From assembly GCF_036507355.1 (NCBI RefSeq), contig NZ_AP027877.1: a DNA stretch of 64,000 nucleotides; one strand, given 5' to 3'. The notes under the pieces were generated by a model. The model made no database searches. It was given only the letters and a program-made list of their open reading frames with translations, and was not told where the DNA came from. The translations under genes and the position numbers were made by a program. Origin of the DNA: Escherichia coli. GTDB taxonomy: Bacteria > Pseudomonadota > Gammaproteobacteria > Enterobacterales > Enterobacteriaceae. Shown piece by piece: positions 19,708 through 60,567 of this stretch; the stretch's first letter is position 1, and every line of letters starts with the position of its first letter.

Positions 19708-20856
19708 ATGAGTGATATTATTTACTTGACCATAACCGGAGAACAACAAGGATGTATTTCCTCTCGTTGTGGAACGAGCGCATCAATAGGTAATCGCTGG
19801 CAGATTGGCCATGAAGATGAAATCTTCGCGTTCTCGCTCTCTAATAGTATTACGAATACAGGCAAAGGGTCACAATTGCATGGCCTTAGTTTCTGTAAAT
19901 TGATTGACAAAAGCTCCCCGTTACTTATTAACGCTATTAACAATAACGAGCAGTTGTTCATGGAGTTTGACTTCTATCGGATCAATAGATTTGGTCGATG
20001 GGAGAAATATTACAACATTCAACTCCGCGGCGCGCTCTTATCAGCAATCAATCACCTGTTTACTGAGAACAATCTGGATACAGAAGCCATCACTGTCAGT
20101 TATGAATATATACTCTCCAGGCATCTGATTGCTAATACTGAATTTAGTTATTTGGCATTTCCCGATAACTACAACCGTCTGTTTATACCACGGCCAAAAA
20201 CTAAAGCTGGTAATGGTTTCAAAACACTTAACAGTAAAGCGGTTGGCAGACTGCTTGCTGCTGGTGGCATATACAATGGGAATATCGAAGGATTCAGGGA
20301 AACAGCAGACAAGTTGGGGGGAGATGCACCTGCTGGTTACGATCAATTTATGGATAACAAAGGGTTACTCATCGCTGGTGCTTCAATAGTTGCTGGAGCA
20401 GTTCTGGGGAGAATGAGACTCCCTGATTTGGAATCACTTGAGCATTTCGGAGCCAGAGGAGCAGTATCAGGAAGACCATTTAATCCCGACCTTGCCGGTG
20501 GTCCAATAGAAAATCTGACGACAGATGGCATAACAATCAACAGGGAAGGTATCGCTATTGTTGAAAAACACATAGCCAGATTTGGTCATGACCCTGTAAA
20601 TGAAGTGATGATCAATAGACTGAAAGACATTGAGAAAGGAAAAATCCCCCCAGAACAAGTAGATCTTAACTTCTATACTCATGAGTGTCGGGAATATCAG
20701 CGTTACTGTAATCTTGGTTGGGAAACAGGACAACCTGATGGTGACGCAGGCTATGCACTCTGGAATCATACGCATACTGCTACTCTAGAAGATTATAAAC
20801 TTAAGGGAGAACTTAATGACTTATACCACCAGGATGCACTTGACTATGATAACTGA
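19708..20856 (+). CDS. Hcp-fold protein with ~210-aa C-terminal extension (candidate 'evolved Hcp' type VI secretion effector); C-terminal domain unassigned
   Basis: N-terminal ~165 aa carry Hcp signature blocks (KLIDKSSPLL; FDFYRINRFG) aligning to KEIDSSSPYL and FKWYRIN of canonical Hcp; AAGGA RBS; gene visibly AT-rich; not in the K-12 ysgA-metE interval. Confidence 0.72.
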   Translation: MSDIIYLTITGEQQGCISSRCGTSASIGNRWQIGHEDEIFAFSLSNSITNTGKGSQLHGLSFCKLIDKSSPLLINAINNNEQLFMEFDFYRINRFGRWEKYYNIQLRGALLSAINHLFTENNLDTEAITVSYEYILSRHLIANTEFSYLAFPDNYNRLFIPRPKTKAGNGFKTLNSKAVGRLLAAGGIYNGNIEGFRETADKLGGDAPAGYDQFMDNKGLLIAGASIVAGAVLGRMRLPDLESLEHFGARGAVSGRPFNPDLAGGPIENLTTDGITINREGIAIVEKHIARFGHDPVNEVMINRLKDIEKGKIPPEQVDLNFYTHECREYQRYCNLGWETGQPDGDAGYALWNHTHTATLEDYKLKGELNDLYHQDALDYDN

Positions 20857-26496: not shown

Positions 26497-27519
26497 TTAA
26501 ACCTCTGTAGAGCGGTTTCCGCTGGGTGAGTTATGCCTGTTGAAAAAATCAACGATGGCGTGGAGCGCGACTGAGCGCATTGCGTCCTTTTCAAAAAGGA
26601 TCTCATGGTAAGCACCTTTAATTACCAACGGCCGTCCTCCTTCGACAGGATGGCCCGCGGCGGTGCGGAGTTCACAAAAACGGTCATGCATGCGGTTATC
26701 CACCACGCGTTCCTCTTCAGCCTGCAAGAGAAGCGTTGGCGTGGCGTCATCACCCGCACCGGCTAACACCTGTTCGCCAGCCAGAATACTTTCGCGTACC
26801 CAATGGTAGGTCGGCCCACCGACGCGAATCGTTGGGTCATCAGCATAGAAGCGTAAGTTACGTCGATATCGCTGTCTGCTGTGGGTCAGTACGTTGATAG
26901 CAAACGGCAACGCGCGCCAGCGCCCGGTGCCTATTGCATAGCCATCACGGAAACGTGGATGCGCTTCGGCCCAGTTGAGGATCTGCCGTGCCATAAATGA
27001 CGGCATACGAATCACGATCCCAAACATTGGCGCAGTTAGCGCAATGGCGTCACATACACCTGGATGGCGTTGCAGAAATAATGTGGAGATCGCACCGCCC
27101 ATCGAATGTGCCAGTATATAGCGTTTACGCCACGGACCGGGCTGGACCTCCTGTTGCCAGAATGCCGCCAGATCATCAACATAATCATTAAAGCGATTAA
27201 CATGCCCGAGATGCGGATCGGCTAACAGGCGACCGGAACGTCCCTGCCCGCGATGGTCGATGATTAAGACATCAAACCCCAAATGGAACAAATCGTAGGC
27301 CAGTTCCGCATATTTTACGTAGCTCTCAATACGCCCCGGGCAGATGACTACCACCCGGTCATGGTGCTGTGCGCGAAAACGGACAAAGCGCACCGGAATG
27401 TCATCCACACCAGTAAACTCTGCTTCATCACGCTGACGCCAGAAATCAGTCAGCGGTCCCATGGTAAAAGCAGCAAACGCGTTTTCTCTTGTTTCCCAGT
27501 CTTTTTGCTGCTGAAACAT
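26497..27519 (-). CDS. pldB: Lysophospholipase L2 PldB
   Basis: 340-aa alpha/beta hydrolase ORF with GHSMG nucleophile elbow. Confidence 0.92.
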   Translation of the reverse strand: MFQQQKDWETRENAFAAFTMGPLTDFWRQRDEAEFTGVDDIPVRFVRFRAQHHDRVVVICPGRIESYVKYAELAYDLFHLGFDVLIIDHRGQGRSGRLLADPHLGHVNRFNDYVDDLAAFWQQEVQPGPWRKRYILAHSMGGAISTLFLQRHPGVCDAIALTAPMFGIVIRMPSFMARQILNWAEAHPRFRDGYAIGTGRWRALPFAINVLTHSRQRYRRNLRFYADDPTIRVGGPTYHWVRESILAGEQVLAGAGDDATPTLLLQAEEERVVDNRMHDRFCELRTAAGHPVEGGRPLVIKGAYHEILFEKDAMRSVALHAIVDFFNRHNSPSGNRSTEV

Positions 27520-32510: not shown

Positions 32511-33401
32511 ATGGATGCAAAACAAACGCGGCAGGGCGTATTACTCGCTCTTGCCGCTTATTTTATTTGGGGTATAGCCCCAGCGTACTTCAAGTTGATT
32601 TACTACGTGCCCGCCGATGAAATCCTGACGCATCGCGTGATCTGGTCGTTTTTCTTTATGGTGGTGCTGATGAGCATTTGCCGCCAGTGGTCCTATTTAA
32701 AAACGCTGATTCAGACGCCACAGAAAATTTTTATGCTTGCAGTCTCTGCCGTGCTGATTGGTGGCAACTGGCTACTGTTTATCTGGGCGGTGAACAATCA
32801 CCATATGCTGGAAGCGAGCCTTGGTTACTTTATTAACCCGCTGGTGAACATTGTGCTGGGGATGATTTTCCTCGGCGAGCGATTCCGCCGGATGCAATGG
32901 CTGGCGGTGATTCTGGCGATATGTGGCGTGTTGGTTCAGCTGTGGACTTTTGGTTCACTGCCGATCATCGCGCTGGGACTGGCATTTAGTTTTGCCTTCT
33001 ACGGTCTGGTACGCAAGAAGATTGCCGTTGAAGCGCAAACCGGCATGTTAATCGAAACTATGTGGCTGCTGCCCGTGGCGGCAATTTACCTGTTTGCTAT
33101 TGCCGATAGCTCAACCAGCCATATGGGGCAAAACCCGATATCGCTGAATTTACTGCTGATCGCTGCCGGTATTGTCACTACCGTACCGCTGTTGTGTTTT
33201 ACTGCAGCTGCGACACGCCTGCGTCTCTCAACGTTAGGCTTTTTCCAGTACATTGGCCCGACGCTGATGTTCCTGCTGGCTGTGACGTTTTATGGTGAAA
33301 AACCGGGTGCCGATAAAATGGTGACTTTCGCCTTTATTTGGGTGGCGCTGGCAATTTTTGTGATGGATGCAATTTATACTCAACGTAGAACGTCCAAATA
33401 A
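32511..33401 (+). CDS. rarD: EamA/DMT-family transporter RarD
   Basis: 296-aa polytopic ORF MDAKQTRQGVLLALAAYFIWGIAPAYFKL. Confidence 0.92.
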   Translation: MDAKQTRQGVLLALAAYFIWGIAPAYFKLIYYVPADEILTHRVIWSFFFMVVLMSICRQWSYLKTLIQTPQKIFMLAVSAVLIGGNWLLFIWAVNNHHMLEASLGYFINPLVNIVLGMIFLGERFRRMQWLAVILAICGVLVQLWTFGSLPIIALGLAFSFAFYGLVRKKIAVEAQTGMLIETMWLLPVAAIYLFAIADSSTSHMGQNPISLNLLLIAAGIVTTVPLLCFTAAATRLRLSTLGFFQYIGPTLMFLLAVTFYGEKPGADKMVTFAFIWVALAIFVMDAIYTQRRTSK

Positions 33402-33435: not shown

Positions 33436-33813
33436 TTGCATGAGAGTGGGCATATTGCCATGCTGACAGGAGACTCACACAAGGATGTAAAATTTATGTT
33501 ACGTATGTTTATCCCAACATCTAACGGTAAGATTTCCAGACGCCGTTATATATTTTCATTTATTTTAATAAACTTCATTTTTGCCTTTCTTATTATCTTT
33601 TTTAACGATGGAGAAGCAGGTTTTCTTGTTATAGTCTCTACCATCTTACTCCATTATCTCGTCATCAATCTGAATTGCCAACGACTCCGTGATAGTGGTT
33701 TCGTCTATATAAAAACTTATGTTTTTGGTACATTAGCAGTATATATCATCTCTATCATCACAATGATAGCCGAAGATTTTGCCTGTTCAGGCAATGGTTC
33801 GATGATTTTTTAA
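33436..33813 (+). CDS. yigG: Small inner membrane protein YigG
   Basis: 125-aa ORF with two hydrophobic helices; position after rarD; AT-rich. Confidence 0.6.
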
Positions 33814-33888
33814 TTTGTTATTTTTCCACTTTCAGTATGCTAATGCTTGCACCTACTGATTCATCAAAACAATAGTTATGGAGTATTT

Positions 33889-34269
33889 ATGAGTAAGGAA
33901 TATATGAACGATGGTTCATTAAGTGAAAAATGGAAATACCGATTTAATTTTTATGATCAACATGGTTTTCCTGGATTCTGGGGGGCAACACCAGAATATA
34001 AAGCAGCATTTAAAGCATTAAAAGTAAGACAACGCTTAACTATTCAAATGAATTTCATTGCTTTCTTCTGTTCCTAGATATATTTATTTGTCCTGGGGTT
34101 ATGGAAAAAAGCAATTATAGTTCTATTACTTGGTATTCTATCTCTATTTGTTGGTGCACTAATTGGCGTTAACATTCTGGGTATTGCCGTAGCAGCCTAT
34201 GTTGCTGTTAACACGAACAAATGGTTCTATGAGAAAGAAGTAAAAGGGTTAAATACCTGGAGCCTTTGA
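33889..34269 (+). pseudogene. yigF: yigF (DUF2628-type small membrane protein) interrupted by an in-frame amber codon at 34075-34077
   Basis: MSKEYMNDGSLSEKWKYRFNFYDQHGFPGFWG... stops at TAG after 62 codons, then the same frame stays open for 63 more protein-like hydrophobic codons to TGA at 34267-34269. Confidence 0.6.
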
Positions 34270-34309
34270 ATAAGAGGTGGCTTAGCCAGGCTAAGCCACC
34301 GCCTTCTTT

Positions 34310-34445
34310 TTACAACCAGTTCTTGCGCTTAAAGTACAGATACGGTGCCAGGCCCGCGAGGATCATAAAGATAATCGCGCCTGGGTAGCCGAAACTCCAC
34401 TTCAGTTCTGGCATAAACTCAAAGTTCATGCCATAGCTGGAGGCA
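34310..34445 (-). repeat. Orphan near-identical copy of the corA 3' end (direct repeat of 36017-36150)
   Basis: Encodes ...[43 protein letters not shown], the CorA C-terminus including the GMN motif; only a few mismatches to the intact corA 3' end. Confidence 0.85.
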
Positions 34446-34637
34446 ATCCGCGTAGGAAAAAGTTTCCTAATCGGTAAATTCAACATATTGTTATTAACAA
34501 TGGGCAAAACCAATCAATAACGAGATTCCCTTCGGAATGTAATAAAAATGTGAAGTGTACTTCTTTTTTAAAATTTTTTATCCTAGCATTTGTTCTCAAA
34601 TTGATATTGAGCTTAAATATAACCAAGGAAAATGTAA

Positions 34638-35345
34638 ATGAATAACACATTACTTCCATCAATTAATATTCCCTGTACACTTTTCGAAACTATTAGTTTA
34701 TTTGATGATTATTCTGCTGATGATATGCAATATGGTGATATGGTAGAACAAGATTTTCTCTCACTCGGCCTAAGCGATATCTCAGCAAAAGTTGATCCTT
34801 ACAGACTTATTAAATACCATTTCCCTGGCCCAGGTTCTGTTAATGTTGTTTTTAGTGCCTCAAGTTCCGGAACAAAAATATCACAACGTGAATGCACTGA
34901 TATTTTATTTGCAGAAATGAAAGAACTAGCAAAAAATTTTTCCTTTTTTGGACAATATAAAACACTTATCGAAGATCTGATTGAACATTTTAGATATGGA
35001 AATGGCAGCAATTTTCATAGCCAACAATTAAATTTATCTTTTCATGAAAAGATAAATAAATATGGTTATAATAGTCCAATACGAATAATCAAAGAATGTA
35101 TCGAAAATGGCATTAATTCAACTCCCTCGACAGGATACCAACCTCTTATCCTGCAAAGCATTAAAACCAAATTACTTTCATCAAGACTAAATAAATTTAA
35201 TGACTTCGAGGACAGTTTTAATGGCTTAGGAATCAGTATTCATGATATTTCAGCTCAAAAAAATATCTCTTTTAAGCTTTCAAAAATACGCTATAGGGTG
35301 GAGTGCGACAATTCATTTTGTAGCACAGGACCACTTCGGTCTTGA
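34638..35345 (+). CDS. Hypothetical protein in the AT-rich corA-adjacent insert; probably frameshifted (alternative frame continues to 35487)
   Basis: 235-aa ORF with no match recalled; AT-rich; an A7 tract at 35260-35266 lies where a second frame opens and runs to a TGA overlapping the next gene start. Confidence 0.45.
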   Translation: MNNTLLPSINIPCTLFETISLFDDYSADDMQYGDMVEQDFLSLGLSDISAKVDPYRLIKYHFPGPGSVNVVFSASSSGTKISQRECTDILFAEMKELAKNFSFFGQYKTLIEDLIEHFRYGNGSNFHSQQLNLSFHEKINKYGYNSPIRIIKECIENGINSTPSTGYQPLILQSIKTKLLSSRLNKFNDFEDSFNGLGISIHDISAQKNISFKLSKIRYRVECDNSFCSTGPLRS

Positions 35346-35483
35346 TGTAACTGATATCAAAAACAAGACTTACAGCAAATATAGATTTTTTCGCATATGG
35401 TTCTTTTTACAACGGCATAAAGGCTTTGCTTTCAAACCTTTTTTCACCAATTTTAACACTATCGAAAGAATCGAAAATTATCT

Positions 35484-35975
35484 ATGAAAAGCAAACGCCA
35501 GAAAATTATATTATGTTTATTTCTTCTATGCTGTATCTATAATTTATGGACATTGCGTCCTGTACAGATTTTGTATACATACTCTGATGCTGGCAATTCA
35601 GTCTTTCTGGTCGTTGATCATCTGCCATGGACTGACAGCGATAAAATAAATTGGTATCTGAAGCATCAGAATGAAATTAAAAATCAACATCCCCTACCAG
35701 AAGGTAGTTGGCATACCTGGTATGTCATTGATATCGGTAATGGCTTCACTGACTATAAAAAATATATCGAAGGGCCGTATGAAGATCTCTACTGTTTCCC
35801 GACAATTAAGAGCAATGATAATTGCATCGTGAAAAATTACTTAATGGTTATTAATGAATACCCTTATCGTAACACTCATATTGGTATTAACGATTTTACT
35901 GAGTATCAATTAACACAAGAAAATAAAATAGAGCGAGTTTTCAATCCGCATGACTTTAAAAAAGACAATTTTTAG
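35484..35975 (+). CDS. Hypothetical small membrane-anchored protein (N-terminal signal/TM segment), second gene of the insert
   Basis: 163-aa ORF MKSKRQKIILCLFLLCCIYNLW...; Trp/Tyr-rich; AT-rich; followed by a GCCGGATAAA...TTTATCCGGC hairpin. Confidence 0.5.
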   Translation: MKSKRQKIILCLFLLCCIYNLWTLRPVQILYTYSDAGNSVFLVVDHLPWTDSDKINWYLKHQNEIKNQHPLPEGSWHTWYVIDIGNGFTDYKKYIEGPYEDLYCFPTIKSNDNCIVKNYLMVINEYPYRNTHIGINDFTEYQLTQENKIERVFNPHDFKKDNF

Positions 35976-36016: not shown

Positions 36017-36967
36017 TTACAACCAGTTCTTCCGCTTAAAGTACAGATACGGTGCCAGGCCCGCGAGGATCATAAAGATAATCGCGCCTGGGTAGCCGAA
36101 ACTCCACTTCAGTTCTGGCATAAACTCAAAGTTCATCCCGTAGCTGGAAGCAACCAGCGTTGGCGGCAGGAACACGACGGATACCACCGAGAAAATTTTG
36201 ATGATGCGGTTCTGCTCGATGTTGATAAAACCCATTGCCGCCTGCATCAGGAAGTTCACCTTCTGGAACAGGGATTCGTTATGCGGCAGCAGGGATTCGA
36301 TATCTCGCAGGATTTCACGCGCCTGCTCCAGTTGCCCACCCGGTAAGCGTGCTTTACGTACCAGGAAGTTGAGAGCGCGCTGGGTATCCATCAGACACAG
36401 GCGAACTTTCCAGCCGATATCTTCCAGTTCCGCCAGAGTGGAGAGCGCCTCGTCGTACTCATCGCCCTGATGCCCTTCCATAATCACCCGGCTCAATTGC
36501 TCCAGGTCGCTATAGATATTTTCAATTTCATCTGCCAACTGTTCGATTTTGGTTTCGAACAAATCCAGCAGCAACTCGTAGGCGTTACCGTCTACCATCG
36601 ACTGGCTACGGGCACGCATACGATATAGACGAAAAGCGGGCAGTTCACGCTCACGCAGAGTAAACAGACGACCATCACGGATGGTAAATGCCACAGTGGA
36701 GTTACCGGCGTGATCTTCCGCATCTTCAAAGAAGAAGAAGGAGTGAATATGCAGGCCGTCATCGTCTTCAAAGAAACGTGCCGATGCTTCGATGTCTTCC
36801 AGTTCCGGGCGGGTTGCCAGGCTCTGGCCAAGTTCAGATTGTACGCGCAGTCGCTCGTCGTCGTCCGGTTCGACAAGATCAATCCATACTGCATTTACAA
36901 GGGGTTGTGACTCTTCGACTTCCAGCCGGGTCAGTCGGTTATTTTCCAGTTGAAATGCGCTCAGCAT
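36017..36967 (-). CDS. corA: Magnesium/cobalt transport protein CorA
   Basis: Start placed at [31 protein letters not shown] (316 aa); GMN motif and C-terminal TM helices. Confidence 0.95.
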
Positions 36968-44754: not shown

Positions 44755-44942
44755 TATGGATTGCCTGTAAAGTTCATCGCTTTCTGCTTTCTATCATCGC
44801 AGGAGAAGGCGTAAAAGCAAGCGTTTAGCGACTCTTTATGAAGTCTGAAAAGTGAGGAAATGCTGCGAGTATAACGCTTACTCGTGGGGATTTATGTTTT
44901 GCTGGTAGTTTCGTGATCGGCACCTCGCGCCAGGATGGCTTT

Positions 44943-46421
44943 ATGCACTATCGCAATGTGGTTTGTTTGTTGGCTTGTTCGTTGTTTTTATCGTCGGCAT
45001 GGGGATGTCGGCTTTCCGCACCTGAACATAATATTTACCAGAAACAGGGAAAAGGCGTGGTGTACCTGCGCCCTTATAAAGAAACAAATCTTTCTCTACC
45101 TGACGTGAATTACAAGAGTTTGCGTCGGTTACCCAATTTATTAATAGACCCGACAACACTAGACGAATGGGATAAAGAACCGCCTCAGACTGATTTGACA
45201 ACCGACTACCTCTATGAGGGCGCACAGGCCTGGTATCCTCATTATTCCTGGTATAGCGATGGTCGCAATATCCTCTACGCGGGTGAAGTTGTGCAAAACC
45301 CTCCCGGCACACCTCCCGTCGATGTCGCCTCGTTCAAGGCATGGGGTGATTTTGCTGCAGATAAACACAGTCTCTATTTTGAAGGCAAGCGCACCGATGA
45401 CAATGGTGGGAGAAATAGCTTAGATATCAAAACGCTGCATCAGGTGGAATTCCGGCCTCCCTGGGCTCCTGACTTACTGGGGCTGATATTACGTGACGCT
45501 AATTTCTTGTATATCAATGGGCATCGCCTCGCTGACCCCGAGAGTTTCCGTGTGCTGGCGCAGAAGTCCTGGGATCAGCGAGGAAAGTTTTCCACCACGT
45601 TTAACCCCTGCGTTGCCGTACCATTCGGCCCCTGGGATACCCTGGCTCGTACACGGACCAAAATCCTGATCAACGGCGAACAGCTTGATGCCGACCCGGA
45701 CACCTTTTCCGTCGTGCGCTGGATGCCCGGCTCACTCTTGACCTGGCGTGATAAAAACGGGCTACAGCGTAAAGTCCTCGACAAGGAAAATCTGGCGTGG
45801 GATGAGGATTTAACAAAGCACTGTCTGGATTTTTCTCTGCTGGAAAAGAAAGTGTTCTGGCGTCAGGGGCCTGACTGTAAACAGGAAGAATTACCGGGAC
45901 TCGATCCGGAACAGTTTCACCCCATCAGTGATGCTGTCGCACAGTATCAGGACTCGCTTTATACCATCATCGAAACAGAGTCTGGTGACCGCAAGCTGGA
46001 GATCGTGAAACTTGATGATCCCAATCTTATTATCAACAAACGTTTCAACGCCGGGAAACGCCACGGCTATTTACTTACGCGTGCCGAAGGGTGGCCATAC
46101 CATTCCGGTTTACACGTGTTTGAATCTGACGGACCGCTGATCTTACTGGATAACCGCTCTCCGGATGAACGCGAAGCCCATCTTAATGACCATCCCTTTT
46201 TGCGCAGATGGTATGCCCGCGATAACCGCTACGTTTACAGCTTTGATGGCGCGCAGCTCTGGCGATACCGCACCGCGGATCCGAAACAAGTTCGCTTAAT
46301 CTGGAAGGAACAACATTCGGGATATGGCTACGGGGTAAATTACAAAACGGGATATCTGGACGGAAAAATTACCGATGACGGCGAATTTATTCCTGCCCCG
46401 CGCAATGAGGCGACAAAATGA
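44943..46421 (+). CDS. Secreted repeat protein, paralog 1 (DKNYY-like repeats); alternative GTG start at 44913
   Basis: ATG at 44943 with AGGA RBS gives signal-like N-terminus MHYRNVVCLLACSLFLSSAWGC; repeated D-x-x-x-(L/V)Y-(F/Y)-x-G ... ADP-x-(S/T)F motifs; not in my recollection of the K-12 yifL-cyaY interval. Confidence 0.6.
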   Translation: MHYRNVVCLLACSLFLSSAWGCRLSAPEHNIYQKQGKGVVYLRPYKETNLSLPDVNYKSLRRLPNLLIDPTTLDEWDKEPPQTDLTTDYLYEGAQAWYPHYSWYSDGRNILYAGEVVQNPPGTPPVDVASFKAWGDFAADKHSLYFEGKRTDDNGGRNSLDIKTLHQVEFRPPWAPDLLGLILRDANFLYINGHRLADPESFRVLAQKSWDQRGKFSTTFNPCVAVPFGPWDTLARTRTKILINGEQLDADPDTFSVVRWMPGSLLTWRDKNGLQRKVLDKENLAWDEDLTKHCLDFSLLEKKVFWRQGPDCKQEELPGLDPEQFHPISDAVAQYQDSLYTIIETESGDRKLEIVKLDDPNLIINKRFNAGKRHGYLLTRAEGWPYHSGLHVFESDGPLILLDNRSPDEREAHLNDHPFLRRWYARDNRYVYSFDGAQLWRYRTADPKQVRLIWKEQHSGYGYGVNYKTGYLDGKITDDGEFIPAPRNEATK

Positions 46422-47743
46422 ATGGTCAAATAATCACTGTTGCACTCATCCTGTTGGGGCACATATTTCTGACGCCTGCTGTACAGGCCATAGGGTTCGA
46501 CTATTACAATGATCACGGTGTTATGTCTTACGGTAAAGGTTATGGGGAGGATGAGAAAATCATTGCCCAATTTCCGAAGATGAACAGAGCCGATTTGCGC
46601 CTTGTGACAAATATATCCGGGGAGCGGGAGTTAGTGGAAGGCTATATACCCACCGATGAAATAAGCATAAAAAATGAGGAATACCACTGGGTGACAGACG
46701 GCCGCGTTATTCTCTGGCGTGGCAAAATCGTTAGCAATCCACCGGGAACACCCACTGTCGATATTGCCAGCTTTCAGGCTATGGGCCGCTTCGCGGTCGA
46801 TAAATATAGCCTCTATTTTGATGGACAGCGCACCGAAAGTAATAGCGGCGCGTCACGTGTTGATCTGGCGACACTAAAAGCTATCGAAGGTAACTCTACC
46901 ACGCTGGTGGATAGTAAAAATCTCTATTTGTCCGGTCGACGTCAGGGGAGCAGCAGTAATGTTACTGTATTAGAAAAAAGATGGTGGGGTATTAATCCAC
47001 GTCTTATGAGTGTAAACAGAAATTTGTATTCCAATGATCTGCTTATCCGCAGTGGGCAGAATATTTATTTAAATGCCGTTCACCTTACAGCGAATGCAGA
47101 CTCATTTGAGATAATTCGCTGGATATCTCATTCACTGCTGGTTTTTCGCGACAATAAGGGTCTGCATCGTTATCCCTTTGGGCAATTGTCTGGCAAAGCG
47201 ATACCCGTAGATGATGACGTCTCTTTTGAAGTAGGGGAAAGTCGCGTTCGCTGGCGTAAACAGCTCACGCCCGACCGTCAGTGGAGCAAGTGGATAGACC
47301 TACCAGGTATTGAACCTGAACAATTTCATCTGATTACTGGCAATATTGCGCAATATAAAGATCGGTTGTATGTAACAAAATTATCGACATTTGGTGAAGA
47401 CCAGCTTGAGATAATCCCGCTGGATACGCCAGACCTGGTCATTGATCACTCATTTAATAGCGGCAAACAGCATGCTTATTTTATCCGCCAATTACGGTCA
47501 AAGAGCGTGCAAATTATTCCAGTTAACGGTCCGCTAACTAAAAACGATCGCTTCGCTTATGACGATCGCAATGTTTATACATGGACCGATACAGAGGTAA
47601 GGATTACACCCTCCCCCTGCCCGGCGAAAACACGCGTCAGAGAAGAGAATGTGCGCGAACTTCACAACAGAGACATTATTATTCCGTTGACGGATGAATC
47701 ATGCCGTAACGCAGCCGCAGAGGTGCAAACTTTGAAGCCCTGA
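46418..47743 (+). CDS. Secreted repeat protein, paralog 2 (DKNYY-like repeats), translationally coupled to paralog 1
   Basis: ATGA start/stop overlap; signal peptide MNGQIITVALILLGHIFLTPAVQA; shares blocks with paralog 1 (NPPGTP(P/T)VD(V/I)ASF; (D/E)PEQFH; LEI(V/I)(K/P)LD). Confidence 0.6.
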   Translation: MNGQIITVALILLGHIFLTPAVQAIGFDYYNDHGVMSYGKGYGEDEKIIAQFPKMNRADLRLVTNISGERELVEGYIPTDEISIKNEEYHWVTDGRVILWRGKIVSNPPGTPTVDIASFQAMGRFAVDKYSLYFDGQRTESNSGASRVDLATLKAIEGNSTTLVDSKNLYLSGRRQGSSSNVTVLEKRWWGINPRLMSVNRNLYSNDLLIRSGQNIYLNAVHLTANADSFEIIRWISHSLLVFRDNKGLHRYPFGQLSGKAIPVDDDVSFEVGESRVRWRKQLTPDRQWSKWIDLPGIEPEQFHLITGNIAQYKDRLYVTKLSTFGEDQLEIIPLDTPDLVIDHSFNSGKQHAYFIRQLRSKSVQIIPVNGPLTKNDRFAYDDRNVYTWTDTEVRITPSPCPAKTRVREENVRELHNRDIIIPLTDESCRNAAAEVQTLKP

Positions 47744-52783: not shown

Positions 52784-53977
52784 ATGACGGAACAAGAAAA
52801 AACCTCCGCCGTGGTTGAAGAGACCAGGGAGGCCGTGGACACCACGTCACAACCTGTCGCAACAGAAAAAAAGAGTAAGAACAATACCGCATTGATTCTC
52901 AGCGCGGTGGCTATCGCTATTGCTCTGGCGGCGGGCGTCGGTTTGTATGGCTGGGGTAAACAACAGGCCGTCAATCAGACCGCCACCAGCGATGCCCTGG
53001 CTAACCAACTGACGGCATTGCAAAAAGCCCAGGAGAGCCAAAAAGCCGAGCTGGAAGGCATTATTAAGCAACAAGCTGCACAGCTTAAGCAGGCGAATCG
53101 TCAGCAAGAAACGCTGGCAAAACAGTTGGATGAAGTCCAACAAAAGGTCGCCACCATTTCCGGCAGCGATGCTAAAACCTGGCTGCTGGCTCAGGCCGAT
53201 TTTCTGGTGAAACTCGCCGGACGGAAGCTGTGGAGCGATCAGGACGTCACGACCGCTGCAGCGTTGCTGAAAAGTGCAGACGCCAGCCTGGCGGATATGA
53301 ATGACCCAAGTCTGATTACCGTTCGTCGGGCAATTACCGATGATATCGCCAGCCTTTCTGCAGTATCGCAGGTGGATTATGACGGCATCATCCTTAAGCT
53401 TAATCAGCTTTCAAATCAGGTAGATAACCTGCGTCTGGCCGATAATGACAGCGATGGTTCGCCGATGGATTCCGACGGTGAAGAGCTTTCCAGTTCCATC
53501 AGCGAATGGCGTATCAATCTGCAAAAAAGCTGGCAGAACTTTATGGACAACTTCATTACGATTCGCCGTCGTGATGACACCGCCGTACCGCTGTTAGCGC
53601 CAAATCAGGATATCTATCTGCGCGAAAATATTCGCTCTCGCCTGCTGGTCGCAGCACAAGCTGTACCGCGTCACCAGCAAGAGACTTATCGCCAGGCGCT
53701 GGAGAACGTCTCCACCTGGGTACGTGCTTACTACGATACTGATGATGCCACCACCAAAGCGTTCCTCGACGAGGTGGACCAGTTAAGCCAGCAAAATATC
53801 TCGATGGATCTTCCGGAAACCCTGCAAAGCCAGGCGATGCTGGAAAAACTGATGCAGACTCGCGTGCGTAACCTGCTGGCACAACCGGCAGCGGGGACAA
53901 CGGAAGCTAAACCTGCACCTGCACCGCAAGCTGCACCGCAAGCTGATACTCCGGCAGCCGCGCCGCAAGGAGAATAA
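52784..53977 (+). CDS. hemX: HemX membrane protein
   Basis: 397-aa ORF with TM segment and Gln/Ala-rich coiled coil; Pro/Ala-rich C-terminus. Confidence 0.9.
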
Positions 53978-60130: not shown

Positions 60131-60207
60131 TGGTCGGCGAGAGAGGATTCGAACCTCCGACCCACTGGTCCCAAACCAGTTGCGCTACCAAGCTGCGCTA
60201 CTCGCCG
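60131..60207 (-). tRNA. proM: tRNA-Pro
   Basis: Minus strand reads CGGCGAGTAGCGCAGCTTGGTAGCGCAACTGGTTTGGGACCAGTGGGTCGGAGGTTCGAATCCTCTCTCGCCGACCA. Confidence 0.95.
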
Positions 60208-60249
60208 AAATACTGCTTTTTGAATTTTTAGTTCAATTCTTTAAAGTCG

Positions 60250-60336
60250 TGGTGCGAGGGGGGGGACTTGAACCCCCACGTCCGTAAGGACACTAACACC
60301 TGAAGCTAGCGCGTCTACCAATTCCGCCACCTTCGC
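60250..60336 (-). tRNA. leuT: tRNA-Leu (long variable arm)
   Basis: Minus strand reads GCGAAGGTGGCGGAATTGGTAGACGCGCTAGCTTCAGGTGTTAGTGTCCTTACGGACGTGGGGGTTCAAGTCCCCCCCCTCGCACCA. Confidence 0.95.
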
Positions 60337-60356
60337 ATTGTCACAACTTCTAATAA

Positions 60357-60433
60357 TGGGGTGGCTAATGGGATTCGAACCCACGACAACTGGAATCACA
60401 ATCCAGGGCTCTACCAACTGAGCTATAGCCACC
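60357..60433 (-). tRNA. hisR: tRNA-His
   Basis: Minus strand reads GGTGGCTATAGCTCAGTTGGTAGAGCCCTGGATTGTGATTCCAGTTGTCGTGGGTTCGAATCCCATTAGCCACCCCA. Confidence 0.95.
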
Positions 60434-60490
60434 ACTACAAATCTTGTTACGCGGTATTACTACCACCGCAGCTCAAGCGCCGGGACTAAA

Positions 60491-60567
<77 letters not shown>

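Follow-up and report, generated by a model that had tools for sequence, protein, structure and literature searches.

The locus considered here raises the question of why the yigF gene of this Escherichia coli chromosome contains an amber codon halfway along its reading frame. The stop could be an error of sequencing in an intact gene, a real mutation that has inactivated the gene, or a codon that the cell reads through, and a real mutation in turn invites questions about its origin and its spread. The stretch of DNA that was analysed (64,000 nt, referred to as the window) is the trkH-fadBA-ubi-tat-metE-recQ-pldA-rarD-corA-uvrD-cyaA-hem region of E. coli.

On the plus strand, positions 33889 to 34269 consist of 62 sense codons, a TAG at 34075–34077, a further 63 sense codons and a TGA at 34267–34269, and translation of the region agrees with the earlier note, which had described this arrangement. 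The same note held that a 63-codon open run is improbable by chance, and for this region of 34.4% G+C the probability from composition alone was computed as approximately 0.006. Homology is nevertheless the stronger argument for a single split frame. Codon 63 aside, the window encodes the reference protein YigF (WP_000032581.1), whose 126 aa correspond to the combined length given for YigF in the note, and references extend to this full length rather than ending at the position of the TAG, the outcome that would have spoken against a split gene. When aligned with E. coli XJ34, the window yigF shows two differences, namely TAG in place of TGG at codon 63 and a synonymous site at 34182, and TGG is also found at codon 63 in BL21 and E275a. 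The nonsense mutation from TGG to TAG suggested in the note is therefore borne out, and the mutated base is 34076, where a G to A change converts Trp63 to amber. Once W63 is restored, the 126-aa protein matches the Pfam family DUF2628 (PF10947) over residues 17–117 with 40.6 bits and E = 3.7e-10, against a gathering cut-off of 23 bits. Furthermore, the position is orthologous, as the gene lies 3′ of yigG in the rarD-corA interval, as it does in XJ34, BL21, E275a and N3. A functional member of the family would have an uninterrupted frame of 126 codons, and here the TAG at codon 63 breaks it, so the window yigF (33889–34269, plus strand, 126 codons on readthrough) is classed by homology, Pfam and synteny as a pseudogene of the YigF/DUF2628 family.

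A change of a single base is the kind of difference that a sequencing or assembly error could also produce, in which case yigF would actually be intact, and a homopolymer difference recorded only for this genome, at position 35257 in the nearby YPO3983-family gene, is a possible assembly error that might lend some weight to such a reading. Independent data from the same lineage, however, carry the identical TAG. Assembly GCA_905398585.1 has the TAG and matches the window throughout 6,189 nt apart from a single A in the homopolymer at 35257, SRR17480487 is 100% identical across 3,360 nt with the TAG included, and SRR31122001 has the TAG on the window haplotype with a single base different in 3,360 nt. 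The same 62-aa truncated YigF product is found exactly in 156 public contigs and 295 index blocks (counts that are inflated by clonal expansion and contig ends), under several NCBI accessions including BED24471.1, and the TAG is thus present in many assemblies beyond this lineage's own. Nor is the assembly error-prone in general, for in a comparison of approximately 47 kb with two other genomes the short indels that could be assigned to the window lay in the AT-rich islet around yigF or between genes, and nowhere else. As the three same-lineage datasets all bear the TAG, base-calling error, which the earlier note had kept as its alternative, is excluded as the source of this codon, and we consider it scarcely credible that the gene is intact. 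The amber codon is very probably a real, inherited and inactivating nonsense mutation, and we hold with similarly high confidence that yigF here is a pseudogene by way of the single G to A transition at 34076. What the shared haplotypes show is that the change is inherited within a small natural lineage of E. coli.

Outside this lineage and its scattered counterparts the allele is rare. A probe of 61 nt with the TAG at its centre was run against complete RefSeq E. coli genomes and gave no exact match in any of the 2,299 that carry yigF, the nearest matches being one mismatch off; the base aligned to 34076 is G, and the codon TGG, throughout these genomes. As a separate observation, the sole difference between SRR31122001 and the window in the 3,360 nt is itself an additional TGG to TAG change, which lies in rarD at the equivalent of window position 32785 (context ATCTGGGCG) and is not at a Dcm site.

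The gene directly upstream has also been lost. In yigG (33496–33875, plus strand), a run of seven T residues has been shortened to six at 33806–33811, which leads to a stop at 33811–33813 and a product of 105 rather than 126 aa. The deletion is common to GCA_905398585.1, SRR31122001 and SRR17480487, and since these relatives share it, the yigG lesion is no artefact either, and in combination with the yigF amber it identifies the lineage. A Shigella-like background, a mutator phenotype or an error-prone assembly was considered as the cause of this cluster of lesions and is not supported, because the short indels are localised and the remaining genes of the window look intact. The two genes lie on the same strand with 13 nt between them inside the rarD-corA interval and are probably co-transcribed. 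With the yigG frameshift added to the yigF amber, it is inferred that both genes of the module are dead, and that this lineage has lost the module's function with little or no penalty.

For the YigF protein itself, translation would end at codon 62 and leave a soluble fragment of 62 aa that lacks the membrane-spanning part of DUF2628. Hydropathy of TM grade is found at approximately residues 50–72 and 60–109, and the amber sits inside the first of these hydrophobic segments. The part that is still translated (33889–34074, plus strand) has a top 19-residue Kyte-Doolittle mean of 0.69 in residues 1–62 and is without a membrane-spanning segment, and the truncation deletes over half of the DUF2628 domain (residues 17–117). 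The hydrophobic segments fall in the untranslated remainder of 63 codons (34078–34266, plus strand), where no in-frame ATG, GTG or TTG occurs downstream of the TAG, which makes it unlikely that the C-terminal half is translated separately. Directly 3′ of the gene, at 34276–34300, lies a strong bidirectional intrinsic terminator hairpin with an 11-bp stem containing 7 G-C pairs, and as yigF is the last gene ahead of this terminator the amber should have no polar effect. Taken together, the hydropathy, the missing restart codon, the Pfam span and the terminator suggest that the allele is likely to be null.

The same 63 codons bear on whether full-length YigF might still be made, either by an amber-suppressor tRNA encoded elsewhere or by efficient readthrough, so that the TAG would be silent or regulatory. 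They are undecayed and encode the residues of the wild type, as a frame still in use would, but a recent mutation predicts undecayed downstream sequence equally, and the state of these codons fits a recent event. Further evidence argues against continued synthesis. Among the 2,299 complete genomes with yigF none has the stop and all have TGG, and since the stop is not conserved among orthologues the TAG does not qualify as a site of recoding or readthrough. Instead, TAG at W63 is dispersed over unrelated haplotypes beside wild-type twins, with carriers at a distance of 0–1 bases from their wild-type relatives. No suppressor tRNA is encoded within the 64-kb window, in which the only tRNA genes are those of the cluster proM-leuT-hisR-argX (60131–60567, minus strand), with the anticodons Pro-tgg, Leu-cag, His-gtg and Arg-ccg. 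Moreover, the partner gene yigG is broken too, which argues for simple loss of the module. It is accordingly very improbable that the stop is bypassed, and the pseudogene reading is retained.

The module appears to be one that E. coli can do without. The yigF gene was found in 2,468 of 5,426 complete E. coli genomes; UTME-3 lacks the yigG-yigF pair and has instead another small hypothetical gene on the opposite strand (window 33436–34269 versus 26759–27034 of the UTME-3 locus); and the yigG of BL21 is annotated as an "internal stop" pseudogene. On these grounds the pair is regarded as accessory. BL21 resembles the window in that a partner gene of the same rarD-corA module has been naturally inactivated, although compared with the window yigF it is the other gene that is affected, by another lesion, and the yigF of BL21 is intact. 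In the literature, YigF was found mentioned once, in PMC11747333, where it bears the label "virulence factor" taken from a database. As YigF is without known function, no phenotype can be predicted for its loss.

The presence of the same amber codon in strains outside this lineage could reflect either repeated mutation or the spread of one allele. Codon 63 is TAG, and never TGA, in all nine sequenced carriers (eight public loci and the window), and these carriers lie on different haplotypes, some of which include the neighbouring YPO3983/DUF943 insert and some of which lack it. Seven of the carriers were compared and fall into five haplotype clusters, so that the TAG occurs on at least five haplotypes. 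One carrier, L008, differs from BL21, which has TGG, by one base in 3,301 nt, this base being the TAG, and from the window by 83 bases. Similarly, two others (L005 and L006) show no differences from E275a, also TGG, when the Trp codons are masked.

It could be proposed that the TAG arose a single time and was moved to other haplotypes by homologous recombination, which would make a mutational hotspot unnecessary. E. coli does recombine, and the occurrence of the TAG both with and without the adjacent insert is compatible with such exchange. However, L008 equals BL21 at all other positions of the 3,301 nt, and an import would be confined to the few hundred bases that separate the flanking haplotype-specific SNPs (33812 or 33557 to 34182). 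A separate import would also be required for each of the five haplotypes, and the other nonsense alleles of yigF likewise occur on many backgrounds, which is explained more simply by repeated mutation. A single origin followed by recombination is therefore considered improbable. Repeated mutation is the simpler account because its alternative needs five separate short imports, and on the alignments it appears to fit better than the spread of one TAG allele.

Repeated mutation directs attention to the sequence in which the change occurred. The TAG is part of a former Dcm site at 34073–34077, which now reads CCTAG and in the wild type reads CCTGG (CCWGG); the wild-type context, TTCCTGGATA, contains CCTGG in all references examined. 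A change of G to A at the fourth base of CCTGG is equivalent to C to T at the inner C of CCAGG on the bottom strand, and it is this position that deamination would affect. In the proposed mechanism, 5-methylcytosine at the inner C of the bottom-strand CCAGG would deaminate and turn CCTGG into CCTAG on the top strand, and the deaminated site would have escaped very-short-patch (VSP) repair. Such a hotspot would help to explain why W63* has had several origins and why it ranks first among the nonsense alleles of yigF.

[quoted passage not shown] The lacI hotspots and yigF have in common an amber codon produced in E. coli by C to T at the inner C of CCWGG, and the lacI change from CCAGG to CTAGG, read on the complementary strand, is precisely the CCTGG to CCTAG change of yigF. 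Unlike the lacI ambers, which come from CAG codons, the yigF amber comes from a TGG Trp codon, on the strand opposite the methylated C. Moreover, the lacI mutants form a laboratory collection, whereas the yigF allele is found in natural isolates and its Dcm origin is a proposed one. The chemistry itself has been described, in that 5-methylcytosine deamination that escapes VSP repair gives changes of the CCTGG to CCTAG type (PMC2715241), and CCWGG is an accepted G:C to A:T hotspot at the methylated base in E. coli (PMC13250602). According to published work, VSP repair serves to preserve Dcm sites (PMC2715241), and it does so mainly in stationary phase (PMC3527292).

Other nonsense alleles of yigF in public assemblies offer a comparison. 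Like W63*, the alleles W72*, W112* and W124* replace a Trp codon by TAG or TGA, and each has been found on several haplotypes. Among the remaining Trp codons of yigF, W124 alone lies within a CCTGG. The exclusive use of TAG at codon 63 speaks for a Dcm origin, as a TGA there would yield an identical product, but at W124 both TAG (5) and TGA (2) occur, which speaks against it. W72 and W112 lie outside Dcm sites, unlike W63, and their nonsense alleles were found in fewer contigs. The two alleles at Dcm-site codons, W63* and W124*, yield the commonest truncated YigF products (156 and 109 contigs; 295 and 240 index blocks), approximately 3–4 times those of the non-Dcm alleles W72* and W112* (44 and 32 contigs; 68 and 86 index blocks), although clonal expansion and "partial" proteins at contig ends swell all these counts, which for this reason are weak support only. 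The same contamination affects a count of the truncated products of all transition-derived nonsense sites, which had been intended as an internal control. Real stops were confirmed in the DNA of the nonsense-allele loci. As W124* loses three residues only, it may leave a working protein. The predicted Dcm-site missense change G29R was recorded in 90 contigs and was left out of the argument, as only 40 of 2,168 cluster members had been read.

Recurrence on several haplotypes cannot serve as proof of a Dcm hotspot, since in the loci sampled nonsense alleles at the non-Dcm Trp codons are just as widespread, with W72* on 6 haplotype clusters and W112* on 3–4. When sampling is this deep, a gene under weak constraint will as a rule show recurrent alleles, and their recurrence alone does not indicate a hotspot. 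A second comparison, which is free of ascertainment and carries no control for codon position or VSP-repair bias, counted transitions at CCWGG sites over approximately 47 kb against two other genomes (L042 and L043) and gave 2/282, 5/313 and 2/307 at the inner position compared to 5/282, 12/313 and 15/307 at the outer position, with p of approximately 0.002 for the last pair. Transitions at the inner position were also fewer than at other C/G sites in the same comparison. This deficit weakens the Dcm origin without deciding the matter, and any hotspot is invisible in the long-term divergence of this region. The depletion may reflect VSP repair that preserves Dcm sites, or codon-position effects. 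In addition, E. coli B strains lack dcm, and the BL21-like local haplotype of carrier L008 counts against a Dcm origin. The dcm gene of the strain itself lies beyond the 64-kb window. Overall, the position and type of the change on the one hand and these comparisons on the other leave an evenly balanced case that the yigF amber arose by deamination of 5-methylcytosine at a putative methylated Dcm site.

The number of independent losses could suggest that inactivation of yigF, and of yigG, has been positively selected rather than being a matter of neutral decay. Nonsense alleles have arisen independently at W63, W72, W112 and W124 on many haplotypes, yigG is broken both in the window and in BL21, and the module is missing from over half of the genomes. 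Nevertheless, with hundreds of thousands of E. coli sequenced, each possible transition in a gene under weak constraint should turn up repeatedly, and W63* is in none of the 2,299 complete genomes with yigF. The nonsense alleles are, on this count, rare and shallow, as neutral or slightly harmful changes are, and selection for loss is considered unlikely. It is a similarly doubtful proposal that losing the yigG-yigF pair is advantageous in some niches, with the Dcm-site Trp codons offering the quickest route to a knock-out. The window yigF is better described as an ordinary lineage-specific pseudogene in a dispensable accessory gene.

The significance of these findings scarcely extends beyond annotation. 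In this genome yigF and yigG should be annotated as pseudogenes and the TAG should not be "corrected", and the combination of the yigG frameshift and the yigF amber is a usable marker of this small lineage. The Dcm-site context would provide a natural example of a textbook mutational hotspot, and the locus also illustrates that an identical pseudogene allele in different strains need not imply common descent. The W63* allele and its 62-aa product are already in public databases, and what is described here is known biology rather than a new phenomenon.

Several minor observations were made in the surroundings of yigF. Many draft contigs of approximately 32–33 kb (e.g. L036–L038) end inside yigF at varying codons, and this yields dozens of YigF entries of irregular length that are labelled "partial"; a repeat or IS element in or beside the yigF of a common clone is a possible cause of these breaks. 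Downstream, the YPO3983/DUF3289-family gene at 34638–35487 is split by an extension of six A residues to seven (run 35251–35257) and encodes 235 rather than 282 aa. This lesion is missing from the otherwise identical GCA_905398585.1 and is recorded only for the genome of the window (BED24473.1), which leaves a very recent slippage event or a misassembled homopolymer as its explanation. The gene belongs, together with a DUF943 gene, to an AT-rich insert of 1.7 kb (34% G+C) that is found in BL21, E275a, N3 and UTME-3 and is absent from XJ34. A copy of the 3′ end of corA, 144–147 nt long and 95.8% identical (34310–34456 versus 36017–36160), flanks the insert, which has the appearance of an old insertion event in which the 3′ end of corA was duplicated or replaced. 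Disruption of corA itself at approximately 34445 was considered and rejected, as this stretch is the duplicated 3′ fragment and an intact corA lies at 36017–36967.

Further from yigF, an intact ORF of 382 aa at 19708–20856, between ysgA/dlhH and metE, corresponds to a gene annotated as tssD (type VI secretion tube protein), with an apparent C-terminal extension; its counterpart is frameshifted in N3 and interrupted by an IS3-family element in UTME-3. In hemX, at 53926–53931, a tandem repeat of the CACCTG/CTGCAC type has fewer copies in the window than in UTME-3 and N3. Finally, two genes of 502 and 441 aa at 44913–47743, between lptM/yifL and cyaY, are annotated in N3 as a DKNYY-family gene and a hypothetical gene, and this pair appears to be an accessory insertion that the window shares with UTME-3 and N3.
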